A stretch of 26,618 nucleotides of DNA from a virus, in the IMG/VR virus record IMGVR_UViG_3300022552_000376; one strand, 5' to 3'. Both the position numbers and the translations under genes were made by a program. The notes beneath the pieces are model-generated. The model was given only the letters and a program-made list of their open reading frames with translations, ran no database searches and was not told the DNA's origin. How positions within the stretch are numbered: the first letter of the stretch is position 1; each line of letters begins with the position of its first letter. Shown in pieces: positions 1-16,917 of this stretch.

Positions 1-5
1 GTACT

Positions 6-113
6 AGGGGGGAGGGAAGAGGAAGGGGGAAGAGGAAGAGAGGGGAAGGAGAGAGGGGAGAGAGAAGAGGAGGAGGAGGAGAGGGAGAGGGAGAGAGAGG
101 GAAGAGAGGGAGG
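6..113. repeat. 108-nt pure polypurine (G/A-only) low-complexity tract
   Basis: No C or T between positions 6 and 113; contains several G3-G6 runs and GAG/GAGA iterations. Confidence 0.95.
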
Positions 114-1258: not shown

Positions 1259-1423
1259 ATGAAAACAATAGAGGAAGTTATTGTTAAGATTGTCAACACA
1301 GGGATAAACACATATATTGAACTACCAGAGAAGATACCGCAGTTCAGTGATGGTGAGCGGTTAGAATACAGAGAAGCACAGGATGGAACTGCTGTGATAG
1401 TGAAGTATCCTTTCAAGGATTGA
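1259..1423 (+). CDS. AbrB/MazE/SpoVT-like small DNA-binding protein (54 aa, not in ORF track)
   Basis: MKTIEEVIVKIVNTGINTYIELPEKIPQFSDGERLEYREAQDGTAVIVKYPFKD resembles the swapped-hairpin pattern K-V-x-x-x-G-N-S-x-x-I-x-L-P; SD GGTGGTGA upstream. Confidence 0.6.
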   Translation: MKTIEEVIVKIVNTGINTYIELPEKIPQFSDGERLEYREAQDGTAVIVKYPFKD

Positions 1424-1437
1424 TTGGGGTGTTGAGG

Positions 1438-1674
1438 ATGTGTGTAGAAGCAGAGGATGTGAGGAAGGGGTTGGAGAGTATAGACAAGGAAATTCAGCGA
1501 TTGAGGGAAGGGCGACGGTTGATTGAGAATGCATGGGCTCGTTTCACATTAATGCACAAAGATGATGTTGCAGATGTATTGAACACAGCATCTCACATGG
1601 TAGAGAAGGAGTTGGAGAGGTTGGAGAGAGCGAAGAGAATGTTTGAGGAGGAGTTAAGAAGGTTGGAAGGATGA
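1438..1674 (+). CDS. Coiled-coil hypothetical protein
   Basis: Charged heptad-like helices; start uncertain (1420 or 1438). Confidence 0.65.
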   Translation: MCVEAEDVRKGLESIDKEIQRLREGRRLIENAWARFTLMHKDDVADVLNTASHMVEKELERLERAKRMFEEELRRLEG

Positions 1675-1710
1675 CTTCTCCTCTCTTTTTCTTTCTTTTC
1701 TTCCACTTCC
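1675..1710 (+). terminator. Pyrimidine-rich intergenic tract, putative terminator
   Basis: CTTCTCCTCTCTTTTTCTTTCTTTTCTTCCACTTCC right after the stop codon. Confidence 0.55.
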
Positions 1711-1762
1711 ACATGCAAGGGTGGTGCTGTTTTGGCACTATCCCATGATGGAGGTGGGTGTG

Positions 1763-1999
1763 ATGGGTGGAGTAGGATATGTGGATGTTGTGTTTGTGGA
1801 AAGAAATGGAAGCAGAGAAACATGGGTTGCGAAGTGCCCATTCTGCAAGCAGTATGCAACGATTGTCAGAGAGCGAAGGATTGTGAGGGATGGGTGTGTT
1901 GATGTGGAGTGGAGAGTAGAGGAGGCGTGTATTCACTTCTGCAACCTGTTTCCACTCGCATACACAGCGATGTTCTCCTCCTTTTCGGAGGGGAGGTGA
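1763..1999 (+). CDS. Small Zn-ribbon-like protein
   Basis: SD GGAGGTG at 1750-1756; CPFC plus a downstream C-x-H-x-C. Confidence 0.6.
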   Translation: MGGVGYVDVVFVERNGSRETWVAKCPFCKQYATIVRERRIVRDGCVDVEWRVEEACIHFCNLFPLAYTAMFSSFSEGR

Positions 2000-2005
2000 A
2001 GTAGG

Positions 2006-2596
2006 ATGGAGGGGATGAAAGGGATAAGAGCGGAGTTTGAGGAGTATTTGGAGAGCGGATTTCCAGAGGAGATTGCGGTGCTGAAAGCAGTGGCACATCA
2101 CTTCGCACCTACAACGCCAGGTGTGTGGCGAGAGATTGAGAGTGCCATTTGTGAGATAGCATGGAAGAGGAGGAACATAATAGAGAGTGTGCCAGAAAAA
2201 TACAAAGATGCTGTAAAGGAGTTGCTTGCATGCACTCGGTTGATAAAATACATGGATAACCTCACTCTTTCGTGGGGTTGGTTCAATATTGCTCTTGACA
2301 TAAAGACCTACACATACTTTGTAACTTCTCAGCATCCATCCTTACCATACATTATTCCATACAAGGTAGTAACAAAGAGCAGTGATTTTGAGTTTTACAC
2401 TGATTTTGAATTTATGGTGGAAGAAGGAGAACTTGTGATGCTTCGCACAAATGCCAATTCTTCGGCAAACTTTGAAGTCATAGGTCTATTCATAACAGAT
2501 GATGGATGGCTTTTGGAGGTTAGGAGAAGTGAGAGAGGGTTGAGGGCAATATCAACACTGGAGGAGATTTTGATGGAGGAAGGTGATGAAGAATGA
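2006..2596 (+). CDS. Hypothetical protein (~196 aa)
   Basis: SD GGAGGTGA upstream; ATGA overlap with the next gene. Confidence 0.75.
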   Translation: MEGMKGIRAEFEEYLESGFPEEIAVLKAVAHHFAPTTPGVWREIESAICEIAWKRRNIIESVPEKYKDAVKELLACTRLIKYMDNLTLSWGWFNIALDIKTYTYFVTSQHPSLPYIIPYKVVTKSSDFEFYTDFEFMVEEGELVMLRTNANSSANFEVIGLFITDDGWLLEVRRSERGLRAISTLEEILMEEGDEE

Positions 2597-2937
2597 GAGG
2601 GATGAAAGGGATAAGGGGGTGTCTTGACCTCACTGTGTTTCAGGATGAAGAGCCACTAATCACCTATTTCCTCTTTCCAAGGACGAAGTTGGCATTTAGG
2701 AAGTTCAGGAGTGGAGAAAAGAGAGGAACAATAGAGGAAGTGGATTACAATTTCGCATTTGAGTTGTGTAGGGAGTTGTGCAGTTTTAAGGCGAATGGAA
2801 GAAGAGTAGAAGGGACATTTGTTCGGTGGATAAAGAGGAAGGAGAAAGGGCAGGTGAAGAGGCAGAGTGATGTAGTAATGCAACTGTTCAAGAAAGGAAA
2901 GGTGGAATTGAGTGGCTTAATATTTGTGAGGAGGTGA
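2593..2937 (+). CDS. Hypothetical protein (~114 aa)
   Basis: Overlap-coupled on both sides. Confidence 0.7.
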   Translation: MRGMKGIRGCLDLTVFQDEEPLITYFLFPRTKLAFRKFRSGEKRGTIEEVDYNFAFELCRELCSFKANGRRVEGTFVRWIKRKEKGQVKRQSDVVMQLFKKGKVELSGLIFVRR

Positions 2938-3119
2938 GGAGAATGGATTTTGATGTGCTTTCACCTGAAGTCCAGAAGGAAGTAGAACGCAGAGTAAGAG
3001 AAGGAATGCTTAAAACTATTGACACAATCCTAAAATCCTCTTGTATCAGCGAGAACTACCGTAGGAATTTAGAGTATATGAGGCGGATGTTTCTACTTGA
3101 AGAGGCGAAGGAGGGTTGA
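2934..3119 (+). CDS. Hypothetical helical protein (61 aa)
   Basis: Overlap-coupled; start uncertain. Confidence 0.6.
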   Translation: MRRMDFDVLSPEVQKEVERRVREGMLKTIDTILKSSCISENYRRNLEYMRRMFLLEEAKEG

Positions 3120-3343
3120 GTGAAATGCAAGAAGAGGAGATTGTGAATTTTTCTGATGTCGTGAGGAAAGAAGTGATGGAGATAGTAAATGAGCGAGAGT
3201 GGTGGTGTCATCACTGCTCTACCTATATGCCTGTTGACCCAGTGATTGAAATCAAGGAAGAGAATGGAAGAAAGGTTGCAACAGTTAAACTCTACTGTGT
3301 TGCTTGTGACACACTGTTGGATATGTTTTGCAAGTATGTGTAG
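3116..3343 (+). CDS. Zn-finger protein
   Basis: CHHC ... CVAC. Confidence 0.65.
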   Translation: MSEMQEEEIVNFSDVVRKEVMEIVNEREWWCHHCSTYMPVDPVIEIKEENGRKVATVKLYCVACDTLLDMFCKYV

Positions 3344-3356
3344 AGGTGTGTGGAAA

Positions 3357-3905
3357 GTGGTGGAGAAGTTGGAGGTTTTCTGTCCTAACTGTCATCGTTA
3401 CGAGGAATACGAGGATGGAGAGTGTAAGTGGTGTGGATTTAATCACATACGGAAGTTATCAGTGAAGGAGCGAGAAGCGGGATTGTTTGCTTATGGTATT
3501 TGCTCATTTGTTAGAGCAGAGAAGATAATGGAAATCACTGATGGACTGACCACACTTCTTGTTCTGAAGGTGAGATATACGAAGGATGATGTGGATTGGT
3601 GGGTAGTGAAGGAGAGAATAGTGGAGACGGGCGGGATAACACCAAAGGAATTGAGGCGTGAGGTTCTTCACATAGCATCTGACTTTAATGATTTGCTTTC
3701 ATTCCTTCAGAAGCGACTGGAAGTAACAGAAGGAGTGGAATGGAAGGAGGTGGTAGAGAAAGAGGTAAGAAGAGACCATCCAGAGCGGTGGTGGGAGACA
3801 ATCACAGTTATTGAGAGAGTGAGGAGGGGAGAAATTGTGAACAGGAAGCCAACAAAAGAAGAATTAATGAAGTTACTTGCTCCTATGGTGGAAGGAGGTG
3901 AGTAA
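3357..3905 (+). CDS. Hypothetical protein with N-terminal Zn ribbon
   Basis: SD GAGGTG at 3343-3348 before GTG 3357; CPNC ... CKWC. Confidence 0.7.
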   Translation: MVEKLEVFCPNCHRYEEYEDGECKWCGFNHIRKLSVKEREAGLFAYGICSFVRAEKIMEITDGLTTLLVLKVRYTKDDVDWWVVKERIVETGGITPKELRREVLHIASDFNDLLSFLQKRLEVTEGVEWKEVVEKEVRRDHPERWWETITVIERVRRGEIVNRKPTKEELMKLLAPMVEGGE

Positions 3906-3906
3906 G

Positions 3907-4185
3907 ATGAAGGACATAAAGGAGAAGGTGGAAGAGATGGAAAGAGAGGTGTTTGAACTCAAGGCTTTGGATGTGGAAGATGCAGCATTTCACACTCTTG
4001 GATGCATAAAATCTTTGCGTTCATCATATCTCTTACTCAAGGCAAGGGAGATGACAGAAGAAGATGTGAGGAATGTGCTGAAGGACTTGGATGATGCAGT
4101 TAAATGCCTTCAGGAATCATTCTACTACTTGAAGGATTGGATGGAGAAGTATATGTTGAGGAAGAAGGAGGTGAATGAGGAATGA
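3907..4185 (+). CDS. Helical/coiled-coil hypothetical protein
   Basis: SD GGAGGTGA at 3894-3901, ATG at 3907. Confidence 0.7.
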   Translation: MKDIKEKVEEMEREVFELKALDVEDAAFHTLGCIKSLRSSYLLLKAREMTEEDVRNVLKDLDDAVKCLQESFYYLKDWMEKYMLRKKEVNEE

Positions 4186-4553
4186 AAACAGCAACATTTC
4201 CTCTTTCTTTCTTCAACAAGGTATATCAGCATTTTGCTCCATACTTTGAGGATGACAACGACATTCACTTTGACCCTACTGGAATATTCATTCAAGCAAT
4301 TCTCCCTCCCTCTCCACAGTTGGAGGAAGAGGAAGTGATTTTCAGTGAAGGAGAAGAGATGCGAATGTTTGTTGCTCATTTCAGTGAATGCACGGTTATT
4401 GGATGGTGCAGAGGCGATTTGAAGGAAGAGAGAGTTGCAGACATTCTCAAGGACTTCACGGCACAGAGGTTGTGTAACTCAAGCAGACATGAACAAGAGA
4501 AGGAAGCACTTCGTTTGTGGAATTGTGATTTGTTTGTTTTTGGGAAAGAATAA
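4182..4553 (+). CDS. Hypothetical protein (123 aa)
   Basis: ATGA overlap with the upstream gene. Confidence 0.7.
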   Translation: MKTATFPLSFFNKVYQHFAPYFEDDNDIHFDPTGIFIQAILPPSPQLEEEEVIFSEGEEMRMFVAHFSECTVIGWCRGDLKEERVADILKDFTAQRLCNSSRHEQEKEALRLWNCDLFVFGKE

Positions 4554-4575
4554 ATGAAAGGGAGGTGATGTGTGT

Positions 4576-4914
4576 ATGAAAATTGTTGTGAAGGGGTTGC
4601 CAAGTGGAAGGACATGGAATTATCAGAGAATTGCAGAGCATATCAAGCAGGATGTTCTGCAACTGTTGCAGAAGAACAAGGACACTGTTGAGGAGATAAT
4701 TACAAGGAACAGGGGAACACTTAAAATCCTTTTGAACGAGGAGGAGATACGGAAGTATGCGAAATTGGGAAAGAAGGAGTTGCCGAAGTTCAAGATGCAA
4801 ATAATGCGAGTGAAGAAGGCAATTCAGAATGAACTTGGATGGAAAGTGAGAATATATGATGCGAACAATTTGGTGATTTACTTTGATGCAGAGGCACTTA
4901 ACACACTGATGTAA
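4576..4914 (+). CDS. Hypothetical basic protein
   Basis: SD GGAGGTGA at 4561-4568. Confidence 0.7.
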   Translation: MKIVVKGLPSGRTWNYQRIAEHIKQDVLQLLQKNKDTVEEIITRNRGTLKILLNEEEIRKYAKLGKKELPKFKMQIMRVKKAIQNELGWKVRIYDANNLVIYFDAEALNTLM

Positions 4915-4927
4915 GCAGTTTCACGCA

Positions 4928-4953
4928 TTTCTTCTCTCTCTTTTTTCCATTTT
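4928..4953 (+). terminator. Pyrimidine-rich intergenic tract, putative terminator
   Basis: TTTCTTCTCTCTCTTTTTTCCATTTT followed directly by the SD GAGGTGA. Confidence 0.55.
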
Positions 4954-4967
4954 GAGGTGAGGATGTG

Positions 4968-5588
4968 ATGAAGGATATTGTAGATGTTCATTATGGTGAG
5001 CCTAAAAGAGGATGCGGATTTCGCAAAATTTCTTCAAGGTCAAAGGTTTTCTACTACCTTTGTGGAAGTGGAATATCTCTTCCTTGTGATAGGTTACCAT
5101 ATAAGTTGGATGTGTGTCCAGTTTGTGGAAGTGGATTGAAGTTTCACAGAGGTTTTCAGTGGCTTGACTGGAGAAGATACGCAGGAGAACATAATGAATG
5201 TGAGTGTGATGAATACTGCTATGTTTGTCATCCAAGGCAAGGAGAGAGATATGGATTGATGTGGGTTGGAGAGCGGTTTTATACACCAAGGTCATTCACA
5301 CTTGAGGCAGAAAGGTTGGGTGTGAGTAAATTAGTTCCAACTCTTCCAAAAGAACTTGAGATTGGCAAGACAAAGGTTTTACTGGCACATAGGAAAGCAT
5401 GGAAAAACAGGGAGCCAGCGATATTTTATGCATTTGTGGTGAAAAGAGTGGATGTGCTTGTAAAAGCAGAGGAAGCAGATGAAGAATGGGTAGAGCGGTT
5501 GAGAGAGAAGGGAGTGAATGTGATTATTGTTGGAAGGAATGAGGAGAAGCAAATAACATTAGAGGAGGTGAGTAAGAATGAGGTGTGA
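4968..5588 (+). CDS. Cys-rich hypothetical protein (multiple Zn-binding motifs)
   Basis: RGCG, CPVC, CxC-x3-CxxC; near the C-terminus a PIP-like QITLEEV. Confidence 0.8.
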   Translation: MKDIVDVHYGEPKRGCGFRKISSRSKVFYYLCGSGISLPCDRLPYKLDVCPVCGSGLKFHRGFQWLDWRRYAGEHNECECDEYCYVCHPRQGERYGLMWVGERFYTPRSFTLEAERLGVSKLVPTLPKELEIGKTKVLLAHRKAWKNREPAIFYAFVVKRVDVLVKAEEADEEWVERLREKGVNVIIVGRNEEKQITLEEVSKNEV

Positions 5589-5923: not shown

Positions 5924-6877
5924 ATGGAAATGGAGAAAGATGCAACACTTCTCACAAAGTATCGTCCAACAAGTTTAGATGAAATCAAGGGACAGGATAG
6001 AGTGGTGAGGTTGTTGAAGTCAATTTCCTCAATTCATTCAGCACCACACTTTCTCTTTGTTGGAAGGAGTGGAGTAGGAAAAACAGCAACGGCATACGCA
6101 TTCGCTTCTTGGCTTGGCGTTGAAGTAGTGGAGATGAATTCAAGTGATGAGAGGGGGATTGACACTGTGCGTGAGAAGATTAAGACAATTCTGTTTTCAG
6201 CATCACCAAAGATTTTGTTGTTGGATGAGGCTGACCAGATGACCAAAGATGCACAGTTTGCATTAAGGCGGTTAAGTGAGATTGTAATTCAGAAGAACAT
6301 GCCAACTCGCATCATAATGACAGCAAACTATGAGTATAGGATTATCACAGCAATCAAATCACGATTTGCAGTGCTCCGCTTCTCACCACTGAAGGAGGAG
6401 ACAATTGCAGAAATTGTGAAAGATGTGATGAAGAATGAGAACATCAGAAATGATGAAAGGATTGTGCAGTTGATAGCAAAGGTATCAAAGGGAGATGCAA
6501 GAAGTGCGTTGAACTATGTTGAGATGCTGAAGAGGATGGACTATGAGGCGTTTGTTTCATATATAGCAGAGGAGGCAACAAGGGTTTCGCTGGCGAAAGA
6601 GGTGTTGGATGCTTGTGTTGATGGAAACTGGCAGAAGGCATACTTCACACTCAAATCACTGTTTTACACACATCAAGCAGATGGAAGGAGAGTTGTTGAA
6701 GTGCTATTTGATGCAATTGAAGATTTGGAGATTTCACCATACGAGAAACTTCTGATTTACAGGTCGCTGGCATTCGCAGAGCAAGGAATTAATGCAGAGT
6801 GCAACCCACTTGTTCAACTTTCTGCATTTGTTGCTGACACAATTAGAATACTCCATCATTCTGATATGGTGAAGTAA
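5924..6877 (+). CDS. rfcS: Replication factor C small subunit (clamp loader)
   Basis: KYRPTSLDEIKGQ, Walker A GRSGVGKT, EMNSSDERGID, Walker B LLDEAD, AQFALRR, SR arginine finger, C-terminal collar helices. Confidence 0.92.
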   Translation: MEMEKDATLLTKYRPTSLDEIKGQDRVVRLLKSISSIHSAPHFLFVGRSGVGKTATAYAFASWLGVEVVEMNSSDERGIDTVREKIKTILFSASPKILLLDEADQMTKDAQFALRRLSEIVIQKNMPTRIIMTANYEYRIITAIKSRFAVLRFSPLKEETIAEIVKDVMKNENIRNDERIVQLIAKVSKGDARSALNYVEMLKRMDYEAFVSYIAEEATRVSLAKEVLDACVDGNWQKAYFTLKSLFYTHQADGRRVVEVLFDAIEDLEISPYEKLLIYRSLAFAEQGINAECNPLVQLSAFVADTIRILHHSDMVK

Positions 6878-6878
6878 A

Positions 6879-7574
6879 ATGGATGCACAAAAGATTTTCC
6901 CAATCTCATTTTCAGACATTTACAGGTATTTGAAATGCCCATTCTCACTACTCTTGAGGAAGCAGAGAGCACCAAAAATTGAGACAATCTCACCGAAGCA
7001 CATAAAGAGAGGTGAAATTGTGCATGAGATTGTAGCACAGTATTATCGCAAGTTACTTGGTAATGATGTTGTTTATGAGAGAAGAAAAGAGCCGTTTCAG
7101 GTGCTGATGCAAATTAGTGGAACAAATGAGTATGAGCGATTTTTCAAGAACTTTCTGAAGTTTGAGGAGAGAAGAATTCAGAGAGGGTGGGAAATTGTTG
7201 AAGTTGAGCAGGAGCATATGACACAGTATTTCAGAGGAATTTGTGATGCAGTATTCTGTGATGAAAGAGGGAGGAGAATTGTGCTTGACTGGAAGGTTTC
7301 ATCATATTTCAACAAAAATTATGAGATGCAAGGAGCAATCTACAAGCATATAGCAAGTGCTGACACAGTTATTTTCCTTTTGCTTGGCAGTGGTCGTGAA
7401 ATTGTTGTAAATGTAAAGGAAGCAGAGAGAAAACTTCAAGAGATTGTGAGAAGGATGTTGGAAGGAAAATTTGAGAGGAATGAGGATGAGAAAGTATGTA
7501 GTGAATGCGAATATTCAGTATTTTGCCTTCAGCAGAAGTATTGGAACTGCTTTGAGGAAGTGATGTGGAGATGA
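6879..7574 (+). CDS. Cas4-like/AddB-type PD-(D/E)XK exonuclease with 4-Cys Fe-S cluster
   Basis: SFSDIYRYLKCP, G-x3-H, RGICDAV, LDWK, QGAIY, C-terminal CSECEYSVFC. Confidence 0.85.
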   Translation: MDAQKIFPISFSDIYRYLKCPFSLLLRKQRAPKIETISPKHIKRGEIVHEIVAQYYRKLLGNDVVYERRKEPFQVLMQISGTNEYERFFKNFLKFEERRIQRGWEIVEVEQEHMTQYFRGICDAVFCDERGRRIVLDWKVSSYFNKNYEMQGAIYKHIASADTVIFLLLGSGREIVVNVKEAERKLQEIVRRMLEGKFERNEDEKVCSECEYSVFCLQQKYWNCFEEVMWR

Positions 7575-8251
7575 GGATTGAGGAAGTGCGAGAAGAGGTG
7601 AAGAGAGCAGTTAAAAGAAGGGAGCCAATTCTGCTTTACGGAAAGTCAGGAGTGGGAAAGACATCAGTGGTGTATGATGTTGCTCACGAGTTAAATATGA
7701 GTGTAAGTGAAATCAACTCATCACTCTGTCGTGATACAAGTATTGTTCAGCTGATAAAAGTGCAACTACAGAATGGAACACTGACACCAACAATTCTCCT
7801 ACTTGATGAGGTGGATGGATTTACTCATATTAAAGAATTGTGTAAAGCACTCAAAGCAAGTGTGAAAGTGCCTGTCGTGCTAACTGCAAACGAATTCTCA
7901 CGAAAGATGGAGTGTATGAAGGGAATTGCAAGGGTGATATATGTGACAGAGCCAGAGTTTGCAGATGTTGGATTTGTTCATATCAAGGACTTCAGACAGG
8001 CAGAGTTGGTGAAGAGAGGAATAAGTGATGGATACTTTGATTTGAGTGAGGAGGAAGAGTTTGAGAAGGCACTACTCACTGGTGATTTTACTATGCTTGG
8101 ATACTCAAATGAAGTTGCAGAGAAGTTACTTGATGCATCAGCACAACACCTTCAAGGATTTTATGCACTTGCATTTGCTATTGCTTTGAAAGTCTGTGAT
8201 GATGTAAAGGATTTGAGAGTATTGAATGGTATGAAAGTCAAGAGGAGGTGA
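7565..8251 (+). CDS. rfcL: Short RFC-large-subunit-like AAA+ ATPase
   Basis: LLYGKSGVGKTS, EINSS, LLLDEVDG, VVLTAN; adjacent to rfcS; only 228 aa. Confidence 0.7.
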   Translation: MEMRIEEVREEVKRAVKRREPILLYGKSGVGKTSVVYDVAHELNMSVSEINSSLCRDTSIVQLIKVQLQNGTLTPTILLLDEVDGFTHIKELCKALKASVKVPVVLTANEFSRKMECMKGIARVIYVTEPEFADVGFVHIKDFRQAELVKRGISDGYFDLSEEEEFEKALLTGDFTMLGYSNEVAEKLLDASAQHLQGFYALAFAIALKVCDDVKDLRVLNGMKVKRR

Positions 8252-10184: not shown

Positions 10185-11186
10185 ATGATGAACACTGACC
10201 TCCTCTTTTATCCATTTTTTCCACGAGAGATTGGTATTCCCTCTAACTCTTACTTTCAGAGAAGGACTTGCACAACTTCAGAATTCTTTGAAGGGATTGA
10301 CAAAGCAAGGTGGAGTAAGAAGCAAATATATGCTGGAGTTTATGCACTTGATAATGAGAAAGTTGTGATTGACAGAATAGCATTTGATATTGATGCTCCA
10401 TCACTCATAACAGCAAAGAAAGTTGCACTGAAACTCTGTTCAATTCTTAATGATTTGGATTTGCAACCTGTTATTGTGTTCAGTGGAAGGAAGGGATTTC
10501 ATGTTTATGCTTTTCTCACTGCAAAGGAAATGAACAAGGCGTTTGCGAGATGCATAACAAGGTTATTGTGCTTGGAACTCACAAAGGAACTTCCTGAAAA
10601 AAAGTTTGTTGATACTCACTTCTTTGGAAATATACGGGGAATGCTTCGTGTTCCAAATACACTACATTCATCACGACACTATGCAATACCACTAACACAA
10701 GAAGAACTTATGAGGTATGATATAATGGATATAGTGAGGAGAGCAAGGTCAGTAAGAGATATTGATGGAATTGAAAGGGATGATAGAACAGTGATTGATA
10801 TTGCTGATGAGGTGCAAATACAGACAACACGACATACCAACAATAATTACTCCGTTCAGAGTGGAGAGAATGTGGGAGAAATAGGTATGGATATAATAAG
10901 AGAACTTGTGCGTGAATGTGTTATTGATGAACTACTCACAAGTTCAGAGCCTGCACACATTTTGCGATTTGACTTTGTTTCAGAGTTGATGTGTGCAGGA
11001 TTTAGTGAGGAGGATGTATTAGGGATTTTCATACGCTACTTCTCGTTTTGGGATGATTTTGATATTGAGGAAACTCGTTATCAAATTCACCACATTTTCC
11101 AGCACAAGTATCTTCCTCTTTCTTGCAGTAAGTTGCGAGAATATGTGAGATGCAGAAGATGTGGATGGTGGTATTTGTGGAGGTGA
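10185..11186 (+). CDS. priS: Archaeo-eukaryotic primase: PriS catalytic domain fused to a PriL-like C-terminal domain
   Basis: FDID (DxD), FSGRKGFHVY, LRVPNTLH; C-terminal Cys/His-containing helical domain (ECV, H-x2-RF, LSCSKL, CRRC). Confidence 0.85.
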   Translation: MMNTDLLFYPFFPREIGIPSNSYFQRRTCTTSEFFEGIDKARWSKKQIYAGVYALDNEKVVIDRIAFDIDAPSLITAKKVALKLCSILNDLDLQPVIVFSGRKGFHVYAFLTAKEMNKAFARCITRLLCLELTKELPEKKFVDTHFFGNIRGMLRVPNTLHSSRHYAIPLTQEELMRYDIMDIVRRARSVRDIDGIERDDRTVIDIADEVQIQTTRHTNNNYSVQSGENVGEIGMDIIRELVRECVIDELLTSSEPAHILRFDFVSELMCAGFSEEDVLGIFIRYFSFWDDFDIEETRYQIHHIFQHKYLPLSCSKLREYVRCRRCGWWYLWR

Positions 11187-11191
11187 GGAGG

Positions 11192-13417
11192 ATGAGAGGA
11201 TTGCTTATAACAATACACAGGTATGGAAGAAGGATTATGATGTGGATTAGGAGTGAGGATGGAAAGAAGAGGAAGGTGTATGTGGATGACTTCTTTCCAT
11301 ACTTTTATGTTCAAGATGCAAGTGGTGAATACAAGAGTTTGTTTGGTGAGAAGGTGAGAAGGATTGTGGTGGATGACCCTTCAGAAGTGCCAAAGGAGCG
11401 AGAGAAGTATGGAAAAACATATGAGGCGGACATTCCATTTGTGCGAAGATTTCTAATTGATACAGGCATCAAATCAGGATTGGAGTTTCCACAATTTGGC
11501 ACGGTAAGTTGGAAAGAGATTAAACCTGTTGAAGTAAATATTGAGCCTGTGGTATTGTATTTGGATATTGAGGTTGTTTCAGAGAAGTTTATTGAGCCAG
11601 AGAAGGCAACAGAGCCGATTGTTGCACTCTCATTCACAACAAACAAAACAGATGTGATTTACACACTCACAGTGAAGTTTGAAAAGGAAGTGAATGAGAG
11701 GAATTGGAAAGTAATCTCCTTTCCAACAGAGGAGATGCTCCTGAAATTCTTTGTTCAGATGTTGTGGAAACTAAAGCCTGATATTTTGACAGGATGGAAC
11801 ATCATAAAATATGATTATCCATACTTATTGAAGCGGTTTGAGCATAATGAAATTTATCTTGATACATCCTCTTTTGAGGTGTTTGACTTATATGAGGCAT
11901 ACAGGAAACTTTATCACCAACCCTCATATCATCTGAAGCGAATAGTTGAGTTTGAGTTTGGAGAGAAGCGAGAGAGTTTCGCTGATGTCAGGCACTTATG
12001 GGAGAAGGACAGACAAAGATTTCTTGAATACAATCGTGATGATGTGAGAGATGTGAAGAGGATTGATGAGAAGCATAATATCATCAAATTCTTCCATACA
12101 CTAAAGACAGCTGTGGGAGTTGAGGAACTTGATGGGTGTTTCTCATATTCACGGTTAATTGATACACAACTTTTAAGGATTGCTCGTGGGATGAATGTTG
12201 TGCTTCCGACAAAGACAGACAAAAATAAACGAGAGAAGTATGAGGGAGCAATTGTAGATGTCTGTGGAAAAGGCATATACAGGAATGTCGCTGTCTTTGA
12301 TTTCTCACGGTATTATCCCAATATTATTCACACTTTTTTCCTCTCACCAGAGAACCTTATTGTGGGTGATGAGAAAAGTGTGATAGAGATTGATACAGGG
12401 AGGCGAAAGGTGAGGGTGAGAAAGCGAAAAGGAATTGCACAGCACTTGCTTTCACTGTTCTTCAGAATGAGAGATGAAATTGAGGAGGAAATGCGAAAAG
12501 TTCCTGTTGGAAGTGAGGAATATCACTCGTTGGACCTGCGGAAACAGGCAATAAAAGGATTGACAAATGCTGTGTATGGTGTTTTTGGCTTCAGTGGCTT
12601 TCGCTTGTTCAGAGTGGAACTTGCGGAAGCAATTACAGCACTTGGAAGAGAGGGAATAACAGTTGCAAAGGAGATTGCATCAAGACACGGTTACAGAGTT
12701 GTGCTTTCTGATACAGACAGTATCTATGTGCAGTTACCATTTGAGAGAGTTTCAGAGTTTCAGGAAGTATTGAATAACGAAATTGCAAGGTATTTCAGAA
12801 CAAAATATGGTATTGATGATGTTGAACTCAAACTAAAGTTTGAGAAGTATGTGGATAAGATTTTGCTCACAGGAGTGAAGAAGCGATATGCGATGAGAGT
12901 TATATATGAGGGAGGTGAGTGTGATTATATGGTAGTGAGAGGATTTGAGAATGTGAGAACTGACTACTCACTCTTCACTCGTGAGATGATGGATGAGTTG
13001 TTCAGAATGATATTGTATGAAGGAAATTCAAGAGAGAGGTTACTTGAATTTCTGGAGAGAAAGAGGAAGGAGATGAAAGAGCGAGATATAGCAGAGATTG
13101 CTATTCCGAAGGGAATTCGCAAACCGTTAGAACAGTATAATGCAACCACTCCTCCTCATATCAGAGGTGCAATATATGCGAACAAGTATTTGGGGGCAAA
13201 TTTCACAGTTGGAGACAAAGTGCTAATGCTGTATGTGAAGGGTATAAGAGGATTTCCACCGACAGATGTCCTTGTTTTTAATGAGGAAATACCAATTGAT
13301 GAAGTTGAAATTGACTGGAAGAGGATGGAGGAGGTGAATATTTTGAAGAGAGTTGAGCCTATTCTGGATGCTCTTGGCATTTCTCTTTCCTCTTTTTCAC
13401 AGTCCAAACTCTTCTGA
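11192..13417 (+). CDS. polB: Family B DNA polymerase (RNA-primed type) with 3'-5' exonuclease
   Basis: Exo I YLDIEV, Exo II GWNIIKYD, Exo III YNRDDV; polymerase motifs DFSRYYPNII, KGLTNAVYG, SDTDS, KKRY. SD GGAGGTGA favours ATG 11192. Confidence 0.96.
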   Translation: MRGLLITIHRYGRRIMMWIRSEDGKKRKVYVDDFFPYFYVQDASGEYKSLFGEKVRRIVVDDPSEVPKEREKYGKTYEADIPFVRRFLIDTGIKSGLEFPQFGTVSWKEIKPVEVNIEPVVLYLDIEVVSEKFIEPEKATEPIVALSFTTNKTDVIYTLTVKFEKEVNERNWKVISFPTEEMLLKFFVQMLWKLKPDILTGWNIIKYDYPYLLKRFEHNEIYLDTSSFEVFDLYEAYRKLYHQPSYHLKRIVEFEFGEKRESFADVRHLWEKDRQRFLEYNRDDVRDVKRIDEKHNIIKFFHTLKTAVGVEELDGCFSYSRLIDTQLLRIARGMNVVLPTKTDKNKREKYEGAIVDVCGKGIYRNVAVFDFSRYYPNIIHTFFLSPENLIVGDEKSVIEIDTGRRKVRVRKRKGIAQHLLSLFFRMRDEIEEEMRKVPVGSEEYHSLDLRKQAIKGLTNAVYGVFGFSGFRLFRVELAEAITALGREGITVAKEIASRHGYRVVLSDTDSIYVQLPFERVSEFQEVLNNEIARYFRTKYGIDDVELKLKFEKYVDKILLTGVKKRYAMRVIYEGGECDYMVVRGFENVRTDYSLFTREMMDELFRMILYEGNSRERLLEFLERKRKEMKERDIAEIAIPKGIRKPLEQYNATTPPHIRGAIYANKYLGANFTVGDKVLMLYVKGIRGFPPTDVLVFNEEIPIDEVEIDWKRMEEVNILKRVEPILDALGISLSSFSQSKLF

Positions 13418-13436
13418 AAGGAGGTGAGAAAGGAGA

Positions 13437-14318
13437 ATGGAGGAGATGGAGGAGAGAGTTGAGGAAATGAACGAGAGTATGGAAGAAATGAGTGGAGAGG
13501 GGGTAGTAGTTGAGGAAGAGAAGAGTGAAGAAGTGAAAGAGGAGAAGGAGAGAGTGCCAGTGATTGAGTTTGACATCGCAAGAGATGCTCTATTGGAGTT
13601 CATAAACCTTGCAAGTGCAGGCGGTTTGCTTGATGAAATCTCCTTCACTGCTTCGGAGAAGGGACTTGTAGCGGTGAATGTTGACCCTGCGAATGTTATG
13701 TTGAGTGCAGTAGTGTTTTCAGCGGACTTTCTGCTTAAAGCACCAAAAACAAAACGAGAGAATTTGTGGATAGAAGCGGACAGAGTTAGCAAGTTGCTCA
13801 CGCACATGGAGAAGGATGATATTCATGTAAAAATCACAAAGGAGAAATTTGAGATGAAGTCAGCAACAAAGAAAATAGTTGCACCACTACTTGCAAGAGA
13901 AGGGAGGAAGGACATCTCAAAGATTGTTGAAATTTCAGATGATTTGAAAATTGTGCCAAAGTTTGAATACAACTATAACTATGAGCTGGAAGTGTCAGAA
14001 TTGTTGAATGCACTGATGATAAAGGATGCAGATATTGTCTTTCAGTGCTACAAGAATGGTGTGAGCATAACGCAGTATGATGTTGAAGGAGAGTATGAGA
14101 CAACAACACTTCTCAAATTTGCAGAGGAAGGAGAGACGGAGTGCAAAGTCATTCTCTCATATGAATATCTGCGAAAAATTCTTTCAGTATGCGATAAGAG
14201 CAATTATGTTCTGTGCAAGTTCTCAAAGGAAGTGAAACCTGCTCTGCTTCAGTATGCAAGTCCAAACGGATGTGATGCAGTATTCATAATTGCACCGAGA
14301 ATTGAGGGGAACTTCTAA
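13437..14318 (+). CDS. pcn: PCNA sliding clamp with acidic N-terminal extension
   Basis: DEISF..SEKGL..VDPANVM, YLRKIL, C-terminal FIIAPRIE. Confidence 0.9.
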   Translation: MEEMEERVEEMNESMEEMSGEGVVVEEEKSEEVKEEKERVPVIEFDIARDALLEFINLASAGGLLDEISFTASEKGLVAVNVDPANVMLSAVVFSADFLLKAPKTKRENLWIEADRVSKLLTHMEKDDIHVKITKEKFEMKSATKKIVAPLLAREGRKDISKIVEISDDLKIVPKFEYNYNYELEVSELLNALMIKDADIVFQCYKNGVSITQYDVEGEYETTTLLKFAEEGETECKVILSYEYLRKILSVCDKSNYVLCKFSKEVKPALLQYASPNGCDAVFIIAPRIEGNF

Positions 14319-14963: not shown

Positions 14964-15156
14964 GTTCAACGACGGAGAGAAGAAAGTGGAATATGTCATT
15001 CCACCAACAAATACTCCATTCTTCAGTGTTGTGTTCAGTAAGAAAGGTGAAGTGAGGATGGTAGCAATTCATCAAAGAGTGCTTGAGTATCATGAGGCGG
15101 TGGTGTTAATGTCGTTATTGTGCGGAGTGATTAAAAATGAGGAAAGGATACAGTGA
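14938..15156 (+). CDS. Hypothetical protein (72 aa)
   Basis: Overlaps both neighbours; SD-like GAAGGTGA upstream. Confidence 0.6.
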   Translation: MELRVREYKFNDGEKKVEYVIPPTNTPFFSVVFSKKGEVRMVAIHQRVLEYHEAVVLMSLLCGVIKNEERIQ

Positions 15157-15466
15157 TGAATACAGAACAAAGCAAATGCTGGTAGAGCAGTATGGAAAGG
15201 ATAATGTTATCAAAGTAGCAATTGGCTCTTTTGGTGCTGACTTTCTCATACTCAACAAAGGAAAGTTGGTGAAGGTAGTGGAGGTGAAAGGAACAAGGAA
15301 AAAAGTGTGGCATCCTCTACCAAGGGAGAAGGAGCAGTTGCGGAGAATTTTTCACTTCTCACAAATTCATGAATGTGAGGCAGAGGTGTGGATTTGGACG
15401 AAGAATAGAGGAAAGAAGGAATTAAGGATTGAGGATGTGGAGAAGTTTGTGGAGGGAGGATGCTGA
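15137..15466 (+). CDS. hjc: Hjc-like Holliday junction resolvase (PD-(D/E)XK)
   Basis: RKGYSDEY (G-x2-x-E), GADFLIL, VEVK. Confidence 0.75.
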   Translation: MRKGYSDEYRTKQMLVEQYGKDNVIKVAIGSFGADFLILNKGKLVKVVEVKGTRKKVWHPLPREKEQLRRIFHFSQIHECEAEVWIWTKNRGKKELRIEDVEKFVEGGC

Positions 15467-15642
15467 ATATGCTAACCAAAGTTACAAAAGCAAGGAGGGA
15501 GTGGATTTGCTACAGATGTGGTAGGGTCATCAGAGTTGGCGAGAAATACATAAAGGTGATGTCGCCATTTCAGCGAATTGAACTCGGAATGGAGGCGATT
15601 TGTTGGGATTGTGCCACTCCTGAAGAGAGAGAAGATTTGTGA
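15460..15642 (+). CDS. Small Zn-finger protein
   Basis: KARREWICYRCGRVIRVGEKY ... CWDC. Confidence 0.7.
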   Translation: MLNMLTKVTKARREWICYRCGRVIRVGEKYIKVMSPFQRIELGMEAICWDCATPEEREDL

Positions 15643-15654
15643 GGTGGTGAGGAG

Positions 15655-15807
15655 GTGCTGAAAATAGGGTTTAAGGGCAGAATAGATGCTTCTACCTTGA
15701 GAGAATGCGTTGAGGCAATTCTTGCTGTCGTTGACGAGGCTCGCCTTAAGATAAGCGTAGAGTTGTGTTGCGTCGTTTCTGCTGTGGGTTTGGAAGGGGG
15801 GTGCTGA
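15655..15807 (+). pseudogene. 50-codon ORF resembling the N-terminus of a cellular euryarchaeal PCNA (fragment or mini-protein; not in ORF track)
   Basis: MLKIGFKGRIDASTLRECVEAILAVVDEARLKISVELCCVVSAVGLEGGC versus the recalled pattern MFKAxIxAxxLKDxIxAxxxLVDEARFxI. Confidence 0.6.
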
Positions 15808-15810
15808 AGG

Positions 15811-16110
15811 ATGAGGATATGTTGGGAGAAGAGAGAAGAGATTGAGAGATTGAGTAAGATGCCAATAGACTACTTAGAGGGAAAGATTAAGGATTGTGCG
15901 GAGAAAATAGCAAATGCCCTACTCAATAACAAAATCCAAGAGGCAAATTCATGGATGGAGCAGGCAAAATTGTATGCTTATGCAAGAAAGGAGAAACTAA
16001 AGGTGGAGCAAGTAAAGTTACATGTCAAAAAAGGAAGGAAGAAGTGGGAGAAATTAATGGGAAGAGAGGATGTTAAATGGGAGGATTTGGAAGAGGTGGA
16101 AGGGAGGTGA
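15811..16110 (+). CDS. Hypothetical helical protein (99 aa)
   Basis: Clean ORF in the operon. Confidence 0.7.
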   Translation: MRICWEKREEIERLSKMPIDYLEGKIKDCAEKIANALLNNKIQEANSWMEQAKLYAYARKEKLKVEQVKLHVKKGRKKWEKLMGREDVKWEDLEEVEGR

Positions 16111-16116
16111 TGCATA

Positions 16117-16371
16117 ATGGAAGGGTTTATGGAAGATGTTTTTCCTCTCTGTGAGATGATTATGGAAGAGTGCAGAAGAGAGAGGAAGAAAGAAGAGATT
16201 GTGAGGATATTCTCATTTGTGCCAGAGCAAGTGATTAACACAATACTTGAATTCCTCTGTCAAACTGAATTCTTGAAAAAGGAGGGAGAGAAGTATAAAC
16301 TCACCAAAACAGGAAAGGCATTCCTTGATTTACCTATGCCAGAAGGAGGTGATGAGTTTGATGCAAATTAA
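16117..16371 (+). CDS. Small winged-helix protein
   Basis: C-terminal wing ILEFLCQTEFLKKEGEKYKLTKTGKAFL; SD GGAGGTGA upstream. Confidence 0.65.
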   Translation: MEGFMEDVFPLCEMIMEECRRERKKEEIVRIFSFVPEQVINTILEFLCQTEFLKKEGEKYKLTKTGKAFLDLPMPEGGDEFDAN

Positions 16372-16765
16372 TCCAAAGGAGGTGGTAGAGAAAGGTTATC
16401 TCAAACTCTCTCCTTATAGCAAAGTTCAGCAAGTTGGAATTGATTTGTCAATTGAAGCAGGAGTGGAAGTGAGGAAGCATAGATGGCAGTTAGTGCGAGT
16501 GAATGAGGAATTCCACCTTCCTTCAGATGTCTTTGCTCTACTGTTTCCACGAAGCACGATGTTCAGGTGGGGTTTGATTGTGGAGTGTGGTGTTGTTGAA
16601 CCTGGGTATGAGGGAAGACCAGTGGTAGTAATACATGCAACATCTCTAAATGCAGGAGAAGAAGGCATAATCCTCAACAAAGGTCAGAGAATTGTGCAAG
16701 CAATTTTCTTCAAAGCAAACTCCGCTTCAACATACAACGGAAGTTATCAAGGTGAGGGGTTGTGA
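16361..16765 (+). CDS. dut: Trimeric dUTPase / dCTP-deaminase superfamily protein (probably dUTPase)
   Basis: QQVGIDL, PRSTMFRWGL, GVVEPGYEG, GQRIVQ, YNGSYQ; lacks the deaminase H-x-T-A-G and catalytic Glu pattern. Confidence 0.8.
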   Translation: MQINPKEVVEKGYLKLSPYSKVQQVGIDLSIEAGVEVRKHRWQLVRVNEEFHLPSDVFALLFPRSTMFRWGLIVECGVVEPGYEGRPVVVIHATSLNAGEEGIILNKGQRIVQAIFFKANSASTYNGSYQGEGL

Positions 16766-16917
16766 GTGATGTGGAGCAAGTTAAGTTTGTTATTGCATAT
16801 CTGAAAGGTTTGTTGAGAGATGCAAAGAGAAGAGGAGATGAGGAGGAGGCGATGTATATTGAAGAAGTTATCGGAGTTTATGAGGCGAGATTACAATCTC
16901 AAAACAATAATAACTGA
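16762..16917 (+). CDS. Small hypothetical protein (51 aa, not in ORF track)
   Basis: GTGA overlap with the dut stop and SD GGTGAGG; MSDVEQVKFVIAYLKGLLRDAKRRGDEEEAMYIEEVIGVYEARLQSQNNNN. Confidence 0.5.
   Translation: MSDVEQVKFVIAYLKGLLRDAKRRGDEEEAMYIEEVIGVYEARLQSQNNNN

Follow-up and report, generated by a model that had tools for sequence, protein, structure and literature searches.

The window, by which we mean the whole stretch of viral DNA that was analysed (26,618 nucleotides; IMG/VR record IMGVR_UViG_3300022552_000376), has a GC content of 41%, is purine-skewed and carries virtually all of its genes on the + strand. A previous sequence-only reading had pointed to a 50-aa mini-ORF at 15655-15807 that would encode the first strand-helix-strand of PCNA. 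This ORF exists, and it had already been called by the gene callers behind a public protein collection (P0008). The mini-ORF and the features surrounding it are the following:

15137-15466, + strand: 109-aa Hjc-like ORF (Pfam Hjc / PD-(D/E)XK-like, E 0.008, below the curated cut-off); its counterpart is the left-hand partner of pcn in mobile elements
15460-15642, + strand: 60-aa ORF with a Zn-ribbon (CxxC...CxxC), separating the PCNA fragment from the Hjc-like gene (DUF2688, E 3e-4, below the cut-off)
15643-15668, + strand: leader with a Shine-Dalgarno-like GGAGGTG, as in mobile elements; the present GTG start (15655) lies inside the motif
15655-15807, + strand: mini-ORF of 50 codons (GTG start, TGA stop), a chimera of the leader, PCNA residues ~2-33, filler and the leader of the next gene
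15669-15762, + strand: pcn 5' patch encoding PCNA residues ~2-33 (first beta-strand, inner-ring helix, second strand), 85-92% nucleotide identity
15763-15788, + strand: junction filler with no significant pcn similarity (shuffle test, p 0.998) and many private bases
15786-15810, + strand: leader of the next gene, with a Shine-Dalgarno motif and the TGA of the mini-ORF, whose last residues it encodes; 95% nucleotide identity to loci L064 and L065
15811-16110, + strand: 99-aa ORF of another module, with no homologue in pcn-bearing elements; its nearest diverged copies (L064 and L065) lack the PCNA piece

The virus also possesses a replication apparatus of its own, of which the following genes are relevant here (the first three were assigned with Pfam):

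5924-6877, + strand: RFC small-subunit-like gene
6879-7574, + strand: PD-(D/E)XK (Cas4-like) nuclease gene
7565-8251, + strand: second AAA+ gene
11150-13417: PolB, family B polymerase
13437-14318, + strand: viral PCNA, complete and very divergent, with a 44-aa acidic N-terminal extension and no Pfam match

Residues 45-291 of the product of 13437-14318 align end to end with residues 3-249 of solved archaeal PCNAs (PDB, E 5e-7), and a profile comparison with the PCNAs of ANME-1c and of the mobile elements described below gave an hhalign E value of 7e-5 at 22% identity; this ORF is therefore the virus's own, very divergent clamp. The clamp-loader genes and PolB give the virus a clamp system of its own. 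Additionally, Pfam matches identify a primase, a dUTPase/DCD, an anaerobic ribonucleotide reductase (NrdD) and an XPD-like helicase. An integrase or recombinase domain was not found by Pfam in the 35 window ORFs that were scanned; the window, which may represent less than the whole genome, contains no tRNA genes that could serve as alternative att targets. When we attempted to extend the window, the contigs ended at its start, and at most ~600 nt were gained at the other end. Three independent assemblies (L115, L116 and L117) end within ~15-90 nt of the first base of the window (window 1-20), which suggests a genome terminus or a repeat at this position.

Extent and edges of the PCNA match

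In a search of 5.8e9 proteins, residues 6-33 of the mini-ORF matched the N-termini of seven full-length PCNAs (longer length class, 249-273 aa, with both PF00705 and PF02747) at 74-96% identity, with E values from 1e-6 to 7e-4; the best match was P0001 (93% over 28 aa). The 5' ends of pcn genes are 85-92% identical to window 15669-15762 at the DNA level. Taken together, the protein and DNA matches therefore show that the similarity is real and evolutionarily recent, and the PCNA-like strand-helix-strand is borne out. The suggestion that the fragment is more like cellular PCNA than the virus's own PCNA is was likewise correct, the latter being only ~22% identical to that group. Neither the mini-ORF nor the viral PCNA has any counterpart in PHROGs.

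The match covers only a small part of a clamp. Significant similarity is confined to mini-ORF residues 6-33, and homology stops at mini-ORF residue ~36 (PCNA residue ~33), far short of a complete N-terminal domain (~125 aa); the C-terminal domain is missing, and the 50 aa compare with a ring-forming length of at least ~245 aa. What remains cannot form a clamp. PF00705 (PCNA_N) does not match the 50-mer at E<=10, and the sole PDB sequence match is to residues 2-35 of Haloferax PCNA (E 0.19). These two results would be in keeping with chance similarity or an assembly chimera, a possibility to which we nevertheless assign next to no probability: it is refuted by the E value of 1e-6 against 5.8e9 proteins, by 88% DNA identity to a host pcn (E 7e-24), and by the recurrence of the same junctions in four assemblies that differ in sample and assembler, namely the window and three others (L009, L010 and L011).

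At the left edge, blastn similarity to the element locus L001 reaches back to 15648, into the leader. The alignment places GGG at 15667-15669 where the elements have ATG, or where a long pcn allele has an internal GTG; the upstream ATG of the long allele is likewise not preserved in the window. By this alignment, the ancestral pcn start codon is lost from the mini-ORF, and with it the native expression signals of the gene. The long allele itself is found in L002 (2236-2270) and also in L051, L014 and L058. It begins MSEDLADVRAIV, which resembles the N-terminus (MSEEEMADVRAIAL...) of a 106-128-aa ORF preceding pcn in other elements; this resemblance suggests that the long allele may be another deletion, joining the start of that ORF to pcn codon 2.

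Within the patch, the 31 codons contain no stop and no frameshift. When 15669-15759 (91 nt) was compared with 43 distinct pcn 5' sequences, A15754 was the sole private base. The first third of the patch and the leader are closest to element alleles (L001, L002 and L051 type), and the remaining 3' two-thirds to host-type alleles (L006, 91.7% over 84 nt; L012, 90%), with a longest exact run of ~36 nt against L006, a known host allele. Since nearly all bases are present in the pool, yet the best single pcn 5' sequence is just 87% identical over 94 nt, the patch is a mosaic of circulating alleles. The single private substitution in 91 nt would mean either that the event is recent or that the patch continues to be exchanged with the pcn pool or kept in line with it. 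The sequence-only reading had proposed a recent host capture that is now decaying. A captured 5' piece of a PCNA gene is indeed present, and decay describes it only in part: the start codon and the body of the gene are gone, and the patch itself carries that one private substitution. The remark that the codons are C-rich proved weak, the patch having 17% C (67th percentile) and a GC content of 46.8% against 41% for the window (88th percentile).

The right edge of the patch is a sharp break at 15762/63. The position agrees with the claim that similarity fades before the DPANV loop; the gradual fade does not. Past the break, the tail (15763-15810) resembles pcn no better than shuffled sequence does (p 0.998 for 26 nt, p 0.14 for 48 nt), and none of the loci has a match to it in the 1.5 kb that follow pcn (p 0.43). 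Similarity to pcn does not reappear in any other frame or in the DNA further on, and it was right that alternative frames do not restore the match. The last ~8 codons and the stop of the mini-ORF belong to the leader of the 99-aa gene. In L064 and L065, a different 95-aa ORF ends at this same TGA, 3 nt ahead of the ATG, and no PCNA piece is present. Moreover, the 9-mer GGCGAAGAG just upstream of the leader in L064 is the same as that of pcn codons 31-33, exactly at the point where the window switches partner, which would fit a microhomology-mediated join.

The Zn-ribbon ORF, the mini-ORF and the 99-aa ORF (15460-16110) are consecutive in one reading frame and are parted by TGA stops alone. Read-through of TGA, fusing the ORFs that begin at 15460, 15655 and 15811, was considered and rejected, given that TGA stops 27 of the 40 ORFs, those of PolB and NrdD included. 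Because TGA is the commonest stop in the window, we read the shared frame as coincidence together with stop-start coupling.

Host and mobile-element owners of the matching pcn genes

One of the seven matching PCNAs (P0005) is 99% identical to the single pcn product of a Methanophagales MAG, isolate AOM70-1 (JANPRD010000002.1), in which pcn lies on a 302-kb contig and adjoins cobS and a PIN-domain gene. The patch matches this genome with 88% identity over 84 nt (E 7e-24), and PCNA residues ~2-33 are 77% identical to P0005 at the protein level, in the same order and frame. It is the sole near-identical stretch between the window and AOM70-1, the next best being nrdD with 64-66%. PCNA was found in 56 of the 61 genomes of the order that were searched (G001 included), that is, in 55 further genomes; the best 29 of these 55 PCNAs, and L008, share 41-76% of the patch residues. 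Among the 28 loci compared at the DNA level, no other species of the order gave a significant match to the patch. As AOM70-1 alone matches at the DNA level, the fragment points to the ANME-1c lineage and, as the sequence-only reading suggested, identifies the host lineage. ANME-1c is a thermophilic clade known only from the Guaymas and Pescadero vents (PMC9894754). No convincing CRISPR-spacer-like match was found between the window and the host MAG.

Two observations concern further pcn copies in this group. In a host-type contig (L006:244-498, compared with L007:7972-7974), 255 nt that include a 49-aa ORF are inserted ~30 nt ahead of the pcn start; the MAG does not have this insertion, which may represent a small mobile sequence that entered the promoter region of pcn. 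Another Methanophagales genome (G004) encodes two PCNAs (C7:7993-8721 and C1:15135-15881); one of these, from a different contig, is similar to the ANME-1c/element type (68% and 81% identity over its two matched stretches), and its gene may belong to an element that is integrated into the genome or was binned along with it.

The other matching PCNAs (P0001-P0003, P0006 and P0007; loci L001-L005 and L013-L063) come from Guaymas-type hydrothermal metagenomes, where they sit among many small ORFs without family matches. Tyrosine integrases and IS607/TnpB-type genes are found nearby, so the PCNA-bearing contigs are mobile elements. In one of these (L047), for example, 1362-5485 (native coordinates) includes an IS607-type serine resolvase by a 413-aa ORF and a separate TnpB (OrfB_IS605), and a tyrosine integrase is also present at 13144-13911. 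A DNA pattern derived from the patch found 51 JGI contigs, mostly such elements, and at least 15 different upstream contexts are joined to the same pcn 5' end among them. None of the 51 contigs carries virus DNA, and the element contigs have no terminal overlaps that would indicate circularity.

The gene order upstream of pcn is shared between these elements and the window. The Hjc-like ORF of the window is 74-78% identical at the amino acid level and ~80% identical at the nucleotide level to its element counterpart, which lies 3 to ~700 nt upstream of a full-length pcn in 11 element loci (L016, L021, L025, L033, L041, L043, L045, L046, L053, L056 and L057). In L016 it directly adjoins pcn; in the others, one or two small ORFs, sometimes with a Zn-ribbon, lie between. 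The Zn-ribbon ORFs themselves are not conserved: that of the window is not homologous to a 62-aa ORF upstream of pcn in L002, and the Zn-ribbon ORF that some elements have in this position (57 aa) is unrelated. Only two window genes, the PCNA fragment and the Hjc-like ORF, have homologues in pcn-bearing elements. The window order of Hjc-like gene, Zn-ribbon ORF and PCNA piece is thus that of the elements with a full pcn, and this shared synteny indicates that the fragment occupies the ancestral place of the whole gene and is no stray 90-nt insert. The source of the fragment is better described as a pcn gene pool common to the ANME-1c host and the PCNA-carrying mobile elements.

This bears on a direct and isolated capture, in which illegitimate recombination would have transferred ~100 nt of the host chromosome to the virus without an element intermediate or an earlier full-length viral copy. 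The 3' two-thirds of the patch, closest to host-type alleles, are what such a capture would leave, but its 5' third and leader are closest to element alleles, and the Hjc-like neighbourhood is shared with the elements and absent beside the host pcn. We consider such a capture decidedly unlikely.

Origin of the fragment

The surroundings of the mini-ORF vary among relatives of the virus. Two sequences (L009 and L010) match the window at 99.7-99.9% identity, and a third (L011) is 100% identical over 15008-16845 (1.8 kb), with both flanks differing by 6-80% per gene; judged from its sequence, this block points to a recent cassette transfer between virus variants. All four copies of the segment are identical across the mini-ORF. 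In L065, a 72-aa ORF lies downstream of the 99-aa gene, i.e. the gene order is different, and by comparison of these sequences the region is demonstrably mosaic. Scans of IMG/VR with the mini-ORF, the viral PCNA, the 99-aa ORF and the DNA pattern yielded no relatives, and a diverged relative carrying the mini-ORF was not found in IMG/VR, in the protein collection or among the copies of the 99-aa ORF. No relative of the virus was present in the GenBank phage collection, from which an element PCNA retrieved, by tblastn, only PCNAs of haloarchaeal and methanogen viruses, at 26-33% identity. Two short "homologues" of the mini-ORF (P0009 and P0010) were rejected as real truncations, as they are contig ends running into apparent adapter. 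The ends of P0009, P0010 and L065 and the tail of L012 (727-796), which the L065 ends match exactly, are presumably sequencing-adapter sequence, translated into spurious tails that mimic truncated PCNAs.

Our preferred explanation, to which we assign a probability of roughly two in three, is that the mini-ORF is a non-clamp relic of the first ~32 pcn codons, which a deletion or exchange within an Hjc-pcn module left behind at a mosaic junction. The virus, or its cassette, would once have held or exchanged a module consisting of the Hjc-like gene, a small ORF and pcn. A deletion or crossover would then have joined pcn codon ~33 to the leader of the unrelated 99-aa gene, a direction that we infer from the element gene order, perhaps at the short GGCGAAGAG microhomology. 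The only reason why the mini-ORF is still open is that its frame leads into the stop codon 3 nt ahead of the next gene's ATG. If translated at all, it is probably a passive coupling spacer. The virus has no need of the fragment as a clamp, because its own PCNA and RFC are present.

The relic would accordingly have no function as a protein, in contrast to a second proposal of the sequence-only reading, a peptide that interferes with the host clamp so that the viral clamp takes over. In the form considered here, such a peptide would poison the folding or assembly of the clamp of the host or of a rival element. The frame is open, tightly packed between genes and preceded by a Shine-Dalgarno-like motif, public data list it as a gene, and its PCNA part is almost unmutated. 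On the other hand, the ancestral start codon is gone, about one third of the peptide is incidental sequence encoded by the filler and the leader of its neighbour, and the nearest diverged copy of the 99-aa gene is not preceded by such a piece. Furthermore, by the established PCNA structure, the copied strands and helix belong to the core of domain 1 and not to its surface or interfaces. A complex prediction of the mini-ORF with host PCNA, run without controls and with an uncertain fold of the partner, scored 0.00 and weighs on neither side. Positive support for an interfering peptide was not obtained, and we regard it as very improbable. Sense-antisense RNA control of the host pcn was rejected as well: because the patch is oriented like all viral genes, its copy in viral mRNA is sense.

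Lesions and homogenised ends of pcn

Three independent lesions lie within ~25 nt after the same AAGATA in pcn: that of the window at ~+10 nt, that of L061 at +5 nt and that of L057 at +21 nt. In the element L061, pcn is cut 5 nt past AAGATA and joined to the 3' end of a gene whose position in L002 is ~2.7 kb further downstream. In L057 (5495-6215, reverse-complement orientation with pcn on +), a frameshifting 28-nt deletion in pcn occurs 21 nt after the patch. Fragments could be found only if the search pattern was retained, so breaks upstream of the pattern are missed; by a rough estimate, the chance of two further lesions falling within ~50 of ~660 possible nt is <0.01. Such clustering would be more in keeping with a specific site than with breakage at random.

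Additionally, host and element pcn genes are near-identical at their 5' ends (~135 nt) and 3' ends (~150 nt). Synonymous identity in codons 21-45 is 0.92-0.93 against a background of ~0.7, a value partly inflated by the selection of loci. At the 3' end, the host (L007:8666-8822) and some elements (L052 and L003) have virtually the same final ~150 nt of pcn, and the sequences diverge right past the stop codon. In another contig (L022:1-5453), a 98.4% host-type pcn is followed by element genes instead of cobS, the join being exactly at the stop codon.

The low chance of two further lesions so close together is the basis for a reading that goes further, in which the pcn ends (first ~135 and last ~150 nt) would be active recombination sites linking the ANME-1c chromosome, integrase-bearing elements and at least one virus, and the viral patch would be a working homology arm or pseudo-att site. 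Elements, and possibly the virus through its 94-nt patch, would enter and leave the host pcn by crossover with both junction genes intact, and failed or imprecise events would leave the clustered lesions 3' of AAGATA seen in the window, L061 and L057. We put this forward tentatively and think it rather unlikely.

A related proposal, which takes up the attP-like piece of the sequence-only reading, is that the ~90-nt patch is an attP-like site or homology arm with which the virus recombines into the host or element pcn. Recombination would restore an intact pcn 5' end from the viral leader and patch, and leave the host promoter and patch fused to a short viral tail. Near-identity to the host gene, with exact runs of ~36 nt against L006, is in its favour, as are the lack of any other window stretch highly identical in DNA to the host MAG (64-66% for nrdD), the near absence of private mutations in it, the near-identical pcn ends with raised synonymous identity, the join at the stop codon in L022, the lesions clustered right past the patch and the tyrosine integrases of the elements. 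However, identity to known host alleles is imperfect (88-92% over 84 nt), although the allele of the true host strain may differ. No recombinase was identified among the 35 scanned ORFs of the possibly incomplete window, and the patch lies mid-operon among small genes, not beside a recombinase. An integrated form was not encountered either: hybrid proteins of the attL or attR type were absent from the collection of 5.8e9 proteins (longer or near length class), the 51 JGI contigs are free of virus DNA, and the pcn of AOM70-1 is single, intact and has no adjacent prophage. Given the missing integrase and hybrid junctions and the intact host gene, the attP-like piece received no positive support, and we consider it unlikely.

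Significance and comparison with known systems

Under the preferred reading, a relic at a mosaic junction, the mini-ORF is most likely of no consequence as a protein, and its main use is host identification: it assigns an uncultivated virus to ANME-1c at about the species level without a CRISPR spacer. Moreover, the fragment shows that pieces of one essential replication gene pass between a virus, the chromosome of a key thermophilic methane oxidiser and a family of integrative elements. If the breakpoint cluster and the homogenised ends do represent a real recombination site, pcn would be an unusual hub of integration and exchange.

Compared with the PCNA of AOM70-1 (P0005), the fragment represents ~32 of 273 residues, with neither a complete PCNA_N nor a PCNA_C; it lacks the Ser/Pro-rich insert and the C-terminal half, and a ring is impossible. 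Compared with the pcn genes of the mobile elements, it has a similar leader and, alike, an Hjc-like gene upstream, but the elements keep a full gene of 245-260 aa where the window keeps the 5' patch alone, and nothing else is shared beyond the Hjc-like gene. The lesions of L061 and L057 are of the same independent kind, after AAGATA; they differ in that L061 is joined to the 3' end of an element gene, and L057 keeps the rest of pcn out of frame.

The pletoitzamnaviruses (Itzamnaviridae) are spindle-shaped viruses of ANME-1 (PMC9894754; bioRxiv 10.1101/2022.07.04.498658). Their flexible replication arm includes an RNA-primed PolB, a primase, PCNA and large and small RFC subunits, and cassettes are swapped in and out (bioRxiv 10.1101/2022.07.04.498658). 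The window resembles them in having the same replication set and in cassette exchange, a comparison of replication genes with the published description alone; the parts of that description considered here do not mention a PCNA fragment (bioRxiv 10.1101/2022.07.04.498658).

The mini-ORF most likely belongs to an ordinary class, that of gene remnants at mosaic junctions, and its recombination surroundings are of interest. Such remnants are known from tailed phages and archaeal viruses, where genomes evolve in a modular way. Like them, the mini-ORF is a short gene piece with sharp edges, with microhomology at the join and with other neighbours in close relatives, and it holds the position that the intact gene has in related modules (11 loci). 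Unlike them, it derives from an essential, host-type replication gene, is nearly free of private mutations, and comes from a gene whose ends are homogenised between host and elements.
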